Assembly: GCF_003334405.1 (NCBI RefSeq)
Contig: NZ_QOWM01000074.1
Source: Escherichia coli
GTDB lineage: Bacteria > Pseudomonadota > Gammaproteobacteria > Enterobacterales > Enterobacteriaceae
Length of the DNA stretch: 232 nucleotides
Direction: 5' to 3' (one strand)
The first letter of the stretch is position 1. Each line of letters starts with the position of its first letter. The notes beneath the pieces are model-generated. The model ran no database searches. It was given only the letters and a program-made list of their open reading frames with translations, and was not told where the DNA came from. Positions 1 through 232 of this stretch are shown in pieces. Made by a program: the position numbers and the translations under genes.

Positions 1-76
1 GTCCCCTTCGTCTAGAGGCCCAGGACACCGCCCTTTCACGGCGGTAACAGGGGTTCGAATCCCCTAGGGGACGCCA
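1..76 (+). tRNA. gltT/gltU/gltV/gltW family (paralog not resolvable): tRNA-Glu (anticodon UUC), complete gene with encoded 3' CCA; the spacer tRNA of a Glu-type rrn operon
   Basis: Cloverleaf verified by hand. Acceptor stem 1-7 (GTCCCCT) pairs with 66-72 (AGGGGAC). D-stem 10-13 (GTCT) pairs with 23-26 (GGAC), including one G-U pair. Anticodon stem 28-32 (CCGCC) pairs with 40-44 (GGCGG), with a 7-nt loop 33-39 (CTTTCAC) placing the anticodon TTC at 35-37. Variable loop 45-48. T-stem 49-53 (AGGGG) pairs with 61-65 (CCCCT), with T-loop TTCGAAT at 54-60. Discriminator G73, CCA 74-76. The sequence matches the E. coli tRNA-Glu gene as I recall it; no search was run. Confidence 0.96.
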
Positions 77-110
77 CTTGCTGGTTTGTGAGTGAAAGTC
101 GCCGACCTCA

Positions 111-148
111 ATATCTCAAAACAGACTGTTAAGTCTTGTTTGATATAT
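111..148 (+). other. Imperfect AU-rich RNA hairpin immediately upstream of boxA (boxB-like position)
   Basis: Inverted repeat paired by hand. Apical stem 123-127 (AGACT) pairs with 132-136 (AGTCT) around loop GTTA (128-131). Continuing outward: C122-G138 with T137 bulged, A121-T139, A120-T140, A119-T141, C117-G142 with A118 bulged, T116-A143, a C115/T144 mismatch, then 111-114 (ATAT) pairs with 145-148 (ATAT). No folding energy was computed. Confidence 0.55.
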
Positions 149-149
149 T

Positions 150-164
150 TGCTCTTTAAAAATC
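150..164 (+). promoter_or_regulatory. boxA-type antitermination element (spacer boxA; NusB/NusE binding site on the nascent transcript)
   Basis: TGCTCTTTAAAAATC at 150-164 matches the rrn boxA core (GCTCTTTAA-AA) at the expected place in the 16S-23S spacer, directly after a hairpin. Confidence 0.8.
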
Positions 165-186
165 TGGATCAAGCTGAAAATTGAAA

Positions 187-211
187 CACTGAACAATGAA
201 AGTTGTTCGTG
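187..211 (+). other. GAAA (GNRA) tetraloop hairpin in the spacer
   Basis: GAACAA at 191-196 pairs perfectly with TTGTTC at 203-208 (6 bp). The loop is TGAAAG (197-202), where T197/G202 can form a U-G wobble closing a GAAA tetraloop. The stem extends with C189-G209, A188-T210 and C187-G211, leaving T190 bulged. Confidence 0.55.
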
Positions 212-232
212 AGTCTCTCAAATTTTCGCAAC

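Follow-up and report, generated by a model that had tools for sequence, protein, structure and literature searches.

The stem-loop at positions 110-149 of the 232-nt stretch of DNA analysed here (the window) is very probably the boxB-like element of the second, spacer-region nut-like antitermination site of the rrn operons, in the version carried by the rrnG operon of Escherichia coli K-12. The hairpin lies on the transcribed strand (+) between the tRNA-Glu and 23S genes of rrnG, and boxA (UGCUCUUUA, 150-158) follows directly 3' of it, giving the order boxB then boxA. Moreover, the potential to form a hairpin is conserved at this place without a consensus sequence: three unrelated versions are present in K-12 and 78 of 79 distinct enterobacterial versions fold. 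The element is already known and the allele is K-12's own rrnG copy, real but ordinary. The spacer box B was reportedly first described by Berg, Squires and Squires in 1989 (J Mol Biol 209:345), and the equation of the hairpin with that element rests on its position and on the summaries given in later papers.

The boxA consensus of the rrn operons, UGCUCUUUA, is located in both the leader and the spacer, and boxB has hairpin potential but no consensus (PMC6614797). A second boxB-boxA-boxC set is placed 5' of 23S, and that boxB should be present has been called 'puzzling', there being no host N protein (PMC10250234). The rrn elongation complexes are nucleated at the nut-like elements of leader and spacer (PMC8632103), where boxA recruits NusB/NusE and these, with NusA, NusG, S4 and SuhB, give the Rho-resistant, fast-elongating rrnTAC (PMC10250234, PMC8632103, PMC6614797). 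Growth and 30S activity were changed little or not at all by deletion of the leader boxB (PMC10250234); boxB is dispensable under most conditions (PMC8632103) and for antitermination in the assays done (PMC10250234, PMC8632103, PMC6614797, PMC2724277). In addition, single-stranded bases just 5' of the leader boxA can bind NusA-SKK (PMC2724277), and efficient synthesis of 23S is reported to involve the spacer boxA (Pfeiffer & Hartmann 1997, as cited in PMC6614797).

Identity and fold of the rrnG spacer hairpin

Over its whole length the window matches E. coli K-12 MG1655 rrnG at 100%. The gene order at the matching locus (clpB - 16S - tRNA-Glu - 23S - 5S - kgtP) is that of rrnG, the tRNA gene being gltW, and the 3' end of the window falls 28 nt short of the start of the 23S gene. 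Among complete E. coli genomes the full-window query had a match in 5425 of 5426, with a median of seven places per genome, and 1080 records reached at least 99% identity. The features of the window are collected in Table 1.

Table 1. Position and basis of the features recognized in the window
Feature	Position	Strand	Basis
tRNA-Glu (anticodon UUC), rrnG spacer tRNA gltW	1..76	+	ARAGORN; Rfam tRNA 60.1 bits; K-12 annotation tRNA-Glu / gltW
Spacer boxB-like hairpin, entire element (lower stem, internal loop, apical stem, tetraloop)	110..149	+	MFE fold, covariation, adjoins boxA
Variable apex cassette: AGACU 123-127 / AGUCU 132-136, loop GUUA 128-131	123..136	+	Seven-operon alignment, pair counts, loop census
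C115, 5' half of the sole broken lower-stem pair (C.U, not C-G)	115	+	Columns 7-38: CG in 31 sequences, other in 1 (window)
T144, destabilising substitution (G in K-12 rrnB/C/E and O26 rrnG); found with either apex type	144	+	Alignments
Spacer boxA TGCTCTTTAAAAA, core UGCUCUUUA 150-158; NusB/NusE binding site of the spacer nut-like element	150..162	+	Invariant in 7/7 K-12 operons; consensus PMC6614797
23S rRNA 5' flank = Rfam StyR-44 (RF01830), match stops at window end	154..232	+	cmscan 91.8 bits, E = 3e-15

The RNA 100-160 folded alone gives the two-tier hairpin with a minimum free energy (MFE) of -11.1 kcal/mol. Dinucleotide shuffles reached -5.4 +/- 2.2 kcal/mol (z = -2.63), and four of the 200 shuffles folded equally well. 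The lower stem pairs 110-114 with 145-149 and is followed by a C115.U144 mismatch and by a second stem (116-120/139-143); a small internal loop then leads to the apical stem AGACU/AGUCU, which is closed by the loop GUUA. This loop fits neither the UNCG/YNCG nor the GNRA tetraloop class. The hairpin starts 34 nt 3' of tRNA-Glu and its last paired base is at 148/149, boxA beginning at 150. An identical hairpin was obtained both from the whole spacer and from a cofold of the spacer with the trailer 3' of 23S. In the cofold the sequence 3' of boxA enters a long-range 23S helix, 110-149 remains local and boxA is unpaired.

A smaller hairpin (GGUU.GUGA...UCGC.GACC) is predicted at 83-107, between the tRNA and boxB. 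Its sequence varies among the K-12 operons (GCCGACC in rrnG and rrnB, ACCTGCC in rrnC and rrnE) with the pairing partly kept, and it is not conserved across genera.

In the Rfam scan of the window only the tRNA and StyR-44 (RF01830) were above the gathering score, and the hairpin 110-149 is not part of StyR-44 since that match is restricted to 154-232. Weak matches over the hairpin (6S-Flavo, E = 5.9; DnaX, E = 3; mir-8315; STnc410) were far below the gathering scores and were rejected as chance. Within 154-232 the cofold places a local hairpin with a GAAA loop, and this stretch also supplies the 5' strand of the long-range helix between 23S leader and trailer. The StyR-44 family was named 'Salmonella Typhi npcRNA 44'; its match begins within the spacer boxA and spans the 23S 5' leader, and its 3' part pairs with the 23S trailer in the cofold. 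Judged from this modelled pairing, the family looks like a piece of the pre-rRNA spacer rather than an independent sRNA gene. The local hairpin, AACAAU GAAA GUUGUU at 192-209, also differs between operons in a manner that preserves pairing: T199 gives a U.G wobble, the pair being C-G in rrnB/C/E/A/D and T being found also in rrnH, and the loop is GAGA in rrnB alone and otherwise GAAA.

Hairpin versions in the operons of E. coli

The original prediction described the apex of this hairpin as different from the E. coli K-12 spacer. The apex sequence that it quoted is present in the window, at 117-143, and the K-12 hairpin given there for comparison, ATCTCAAAACTCATCTTCGGGTGATGTTTGAGAT, is exact for K-12 rrnB, rrnC and rrnE. 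The conclusion drawn was nevertheless wrong, the window being 100% identical to MG1655 rrnG. An exact match to a K-12 spacer, which had been expected to discredit that reference, was therefore found together with a valid reference, because K-12 has both versions in different operons. From the sequences compared, the difference is best described as variation between operons inside K-12 and not as a departure from K-12.

When the seven MG1655 rrn spacers were retrieved and aligned, three hairpin versions were seen, each placed 5' of one invariant boxA; 'the K-12 spacer' is thus not one sequence but seven operons with three hairpin versions. The rrnB, rrnC and rrnE hairpin reads AAAAC UCAUC UUCG GGUGA UGUUUGAGAU, and its apex differs from that of rrnG at 13 of 14 positions. 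The operons rrnA, rrnD and rrnH, which have tRNA-Ile + tRNA-Ala spacers, carry at the same position an unrelated hairpin, ACUUCAGAGUGUACCU GCAA AGGUUCACUGCGAAGU.

A 71-nt query centred on the hairpin (window 96-166) had matches in 1820 of the 5426 complete E. coli genomes, 1046 of them identical and 704 at 95-99%; in this last band, among the matches listed (14), all were at 97.2%, and the one that was read, O26 RM8426, differs at two positions. The apex is accordingly present in about 1750 of the 5426 genomes (about a third), with a median of one place per genome. Up to seven places per genome were matched by this query, a number that includes partial matches to the boxA flank (e.g. H80) and is not proof of an allele present in all seven operons. 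Assigned by flanking genes, the allele is in rrnG of five sampled strains (MG1655, O26 RM8426, 720632, EC590 and CY706), in rrnB (murI...murB) of FDAARGOS_1248 and in rrnE (purH...yjaB) of CUVET16-321; rrnG of MS15047 and of BW2952, a K-12 subline, does not have it. Outside E. coli the AGACU-GUUA-AGUCU apex was found in no other species of the species-level scan described below, which used an exact anchor and did not recover the Salmonella Glu-type spacers.

The substitution T144 has a distribution of its own. It is unique among 32 distinct Glu-type hairpins, yet it is carried by the 1046 E. coli genomes that are identical over 96-166. In O26 RM8426 the rrnG-type apex is combined with G144 and the pair is intact, and in MS15047 rrnG an rrnE-type apex is combined with T144. 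T144 occurs with both apex types, and its origin was therefore separate from the apex swap, unless recombination took place within 7 nt of the apex.

Gene conversion between E. coli rrn operons has been measured (PMC8022953), and the distribution of the allele fits such a process. A query composed of the rrnB-type hairpin and the rrnG-type flank CCTCAAT gave a 100% match in only 122 records and revealed a mosaic in BW2952. The rrnG spacer of this subline (L111 3673-3865 against window 77-232) has the rrnG-type flank CCTCAAT and is rrnB-type from the hairpin on, with the rrnB-only GAGAG and a 9-nt longer 3' part downstream of the hairpin. The mosaic pattern suggests that a gene conversion from rrnB to rrnG took place within the K-12 lineage.

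Just 5' of the 23S gene and beyond the window, a 9-nt shorter variant, CTC---TGAAGTG, is common to rrnG and rrnD (L001 3733-3760; alignment columns 176-200), and the other five K-12 operons have CACGATGATGAATCGAAAG at this site. The short variant cuts across the Glu and Ile/Ala classes and may be taken as another sign of mosaic exchange.

The original prediction had also proposed the apex as an operon- or species-specific marker. The allele is indeed mostly found in rrnG and its apex in no other species scanned, but it occurs as well in rrnB and rrnE and is absent from some rrnG copies, so that it is a loose marker. Because gene conversion moves alleles, even between K-12 sublines, spacer alleles are unreliable as operon or strain markers.

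Conservation of pairing across the Enterobacteriaceae

One genome per species of the GTDB set was scanned for an exact match to TGCTCTTTAAAAATCTGGATC, which consists of boxA and the bases that follow. As this anchor excludes the hairpin, the hairpins collected are unbiased toward any version; boxA is part of the anchor, and its conservation among the scanned loci is consequently not independent evidence. The scan gave 103 loci, almost all of them from Enterobacteriaceae. The 60 bases upstream of them comprise 79 different sequences, which belong to three spacer classes. A hairpin whose 3' end lies no more than about 4 nt from boxA is formed by 78 of these; the exception is the Citrobacter amalonaticus S646 locus described below. 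The hairpin is present in the tRNA-Glu, the tRNA-Ile/Ala and the tRNA-free spacer classes, with unrelated or varying sequence.

The Glu class was aligned as 32 distinct sequences with fixed columns and structure, the two longest apexes (L054 and L088) being left out. In this alignment 96.9% of cells pair, and five pairs, with 20 cells, have changes on both sides. In 500 column shuffles neither the paired fraction nor the covariation score of the real alignment was ever reached. When the 3' partners were displaced by 1-3 columns, only 16-52% of cells still paired and double changes almost disappeared. Column shuffling takes no account of phylogeny and related sequences can exceed it; more weight is therefore given to the slid registers and to the number of distinct pair types. 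In the Ile/Ala class, which has fewer sequences than the Glu class, 97.7% is paired, against 30-52% in slid registers, and the apical counts are slightly noisy on account of four sequences whose shorter apexes are out of register.

The two tiers of the Glu-type hairpin vary to different extents. The lower stem UAUCUCAAA/UUUGAGAUA is near-invariant, and the equivalent of 115/144 is the only conserved lower-stem pair that is broken among the 32 distinct sequences, in the window alone. The apical pairs all vary (UA/AU; GC/CG/AU/GU/UG; AU/GU; CG/UG/UA; UA/CG), with none of 160 cells unpaired. Compared with the commonest apical stem, UGACU/AGUCA, the AGACU/AGUCU of the window has a U-A pair flipped to A-U, a flip that is found also in Escherichia sp. 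ESNIH1 and Citrobacter braakii. The retained pairing that the original prediction claimed therefore applies to the apical stem, which is never unpaired, but not to the lower stem, where T144 gives the C115.U144 mismatch. Its proposal that a changed sequence with kept pairing points to selection on structure was borne out by the covariation over the 32 sequences, which collapses in the shuffled and slid-register controls. Selection on the RNA structure of the hairpin is thus supported.

Moreover, several features argue for selection on the transcript over a strand-neutral process acting on a DNA palindrome. The non-Watson-Crick cells of the apical stem (11 of 160, from about five independent stem types) are all G.U on the transcribed strand, with no A.C. 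In 56 of 72 distinct sequences the more stable fold is that of the transcribed strand and not of its complement (mean -16.2 against -13.7 kcal/mol). Stable tetraloops are frequent: among the 40 hairpins assigned to the Glu type, 30 have a YNCG loop, and among the 23 of the Ile/Ala type, 19 have a GNRA loop.

Stability itself is only loosely constrained. The hairpin of the window is the weakest among 42 distinct Glu-type folds (-10.5 kcal/mol against -14.3 to -21.7 kcal/mol in a common 48-nt frame), most other Glu-type copies being more stable than the rrnG copy by about 4-6 kcal/mol. The window allele has the only GUUA loop of the Glu-type class and its only broken lower-stem pair. The K-12 rrnG copy thus tolerates a C.U mismatch, a loop outside the UNCG and GNRA classes and a weaker fold.

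Some further observations were made in the scan. The loop class tracks the spacer class, with YNCG after tRNA-Glu and GNRA after tRNA-Ala, which may be due to shared ancestry or to a functional preference. In Citrobacter amalonaticus S646 (L049 10997-11069, at a scaffold end) the 16S 3' end is followed by about 30 nt and then by boxA, with neither tRNA nor hairpin; this locus may be an assembly join or a real deletion. The hairpin in the tRNA-free spacer of Enterobacter sp. 10-1 (L040 113-185) shares with the apex of the window the 10-mer ACUGUUAAGU, including the rare GUUA loop, and a neighbouring species has GUGA at the loop. The shared 10-mer could be a coincidence or a small exchange between spacer classes. 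Enterobacterial rrn spacers were also obtained from assemblies labelled Microbispora, Chryseobacterium, 'uncultured Desulfovibrio' and an Oxalobacter MAG (L075, L080, L087, L088, L092, L109). Some lie on contigs of very low coverage or have exactly the sequence of an E. coli K-12 version, and contamination or mis-binning is most likely.

Possible role and comparison with known antitermination sites

Since the constraint is on the fold alone and boxA is the neighbour that never changes, the hairpin is most likely a fast-folding local structure. It would form rapidly, usually capped by a stable YNCG or GNRA tetraloop, and could lock up the sequence 5' of boxA so that boxA emerges single-stranded from the polymerase. 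In this way it would insulate boxA from the tRNA and 16S-trailer sequences, and the insulated boxA may make it easier for the antitermination complex to be loaded, or loaded again, ahead of the 2.9-kb 23S gene. The apex, free of sequence constraint, would drift by compensatory change and gene conversion would shuffle apices among operons, a combination that could have produced the three K-12 versions and the mosaics of other strains. We infer this insulating, boxA-presenting role with considerably less confidence than the identity of the element. Only a slight probability is given to the idea that the hairpin versions are functionally non-equivalent, either in that the weakened rrnG hairpin loads or re-loads the complex less efficiently, with an operon-specific difference in 23S yield or folding, or in that the split in loop class reflects class-specific partners.

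The hairpin might alternatively be a processing or stability element that blocks 3'-5' exonucleases or directs the endonucleases by which tRNA-Glu and pre-23S are freed from the transcript. It lies 34 nt 3' of the tRNA-Glu end in a heavily processed transcript, most versions have the YNCG or GNRA loops of the stable tetraloop hairpins that are typical exonuclease barriers, and the rrnTAC has been linked to co-transcriptional processing (preprint 10.64898/2026.03.17.712431). However, the constant neighbour of the hairpin is boxA and not a tRNA, as it occupies the same place after tRNA-Glu, after tRNA-Ala or with no tRNA, at a distance from the upstream gene that varies. The long-range 23S processing helix moreover uses sequence 3' of boxA and not 110-149, and no processing site within the hairpin was found in the literature examined, all of which makes a processing role unlikely. 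Still more doubtful is a role in stopping or slowing transcription, in which the hairpin and the T-rich sequence 3' of it would form a weak intrinsic terminator or a pause site, to be read through by the antitermination complex. Hairpin-dependent pausing is a target of Nus factors and the stem is followed by TTTGCTCTTT, which would suit such a site. Nevertheless a consensus scan of the window for terminators and promoters found nothing, and with no terminator-like site in the window the reading as an intrinsic (Rho-independent) terminator was rejected. In addition the stem is A/U-rich, its apex having only two G-C pairs, the T tract is not continuous and coincides with boxA itself, and termination at this hairpin would abolish 23S synthesis in all operons; the terminator or pause reading is extremely improbable.

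A different kind of explanation is that the palindrome exists at the DNA level without an RNA function, maintained by template-switch (quasipalindrome) mutation and propagated through gene conversion, the compensatory changes then being a mutational by-product. Inverted repeats are hot spots for template-switch mutation, and the differences between apices, with 13 of 14 positions changed between rrnG and rrnB/C/E, resemble block replacements more than stepwise change. Gene conversion clearly moves alleles, as published (PMC8022953) and as seen in the mosaics, and the leader boxB can be deleted without a clear phenotype (PMC10250234). Against this stand the G.U bias of the apical cells, which a strand-neutral DNA process would not yield, the greater stability of the transcribed strand, the enrichment of the loops for RNA-specific stable tetraloops and the occurrence of three unrelated hairpin sequences at the same position relative to boxA. 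A purely DNA-level origin is accordingly regarded as very improbable. The mutational and selective accounts are compatible, and template switching could create the variants that selection then filters.

The boxB-like spacer hairpin provides a clean worked example of an RNA element constrained in its fold alone. It touches a question recognised in the literature, namely why rrn keeps a boxB-like hairpin that has no known binding protein or deletion phenotype. The importance of the finding beyond bookkeeping is little. The natural allele series (the strong UUCG loop; GUUA; with and without the C.U mismatch) is usable as ready-made test constructs.

The closest known system is the boxB of the E. 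coli rrn leader, of which the rrnG copy was used for the rrnTAC structure. Both sites belong to the same operon type and are read on the same strand, and both have a hairpin followed by boxA with a gap of 0-2 nt, the rrnG leader hairpin ending 2 nt 5' of its boxA. The two boxA sequences are near-identical (TGCTCTTTAACAA in the leader, TGCTCTTTAAAAA in the spacer), whereas the hairpins are unrelated, the leader having a G/C-rich GCCGC...GCGGC stem and the spacer an A/U-rich two-tier one. The spacer site also precedes 23S and not 16S. A leader-type boxC, TGTGTGGG, is present 3' of the leader boxA (L001 1671-1678) but was absent, at up to one mismatch, from the + strand between the spacer boxA and 23S, so that the spacer reproduces the leader site incompletely. 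As boxC marks the full leader site and not the boxB element, its absence does not bar boxB membership.

The other K-12 spacer hairpins share position, architecture and boxA with that of the window, and the Glu-type ones share the lower stem and flanks as well. The rrnB/C/E hairpins differ by the apex UCAUC-UUCG-GGUGA with its C(UUCG)G tetraloop and by an intact C-G pair at 115/144, where the window has AGACU-GUUA-AGUCU and C.U, and the rrnA/D/H hairpins have a different stem with a GCAA loop. Garcia-Martinez et al. reportedly described in 1996 (J Bacteriol 178:6374, cited in PMC4749711) a mosaic heterogeneity of the E. coli 16S-23S spacer and attributed it to recombination between operons; the mosaicism so reported and the variation seen here have in common a block variation of the tRNA-Glu spacer from operon to operon and from strain to strain.

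The boxB of the phage lambda nut site is likewise a short hairpin beside boxA in a Nus-factor-dependent antitermination signal (PMC10250234, PMC8632103). The order in lambda is boxA then boxB, however, which is the reverse of that in the rrn spacer. Moreover, the lambda boxB has a conserved GNRA-like pentaloop that is read by the arginine-rich motif of N, whereas E. coli has no N homologue and the spacer loop, GUUA in the window, varies freely among its relatives. With the loop varying and the order reversed, membership in the lambdoid nut boxB family was rejected, and the spacer hairpin is an analogue of the lambda element only.
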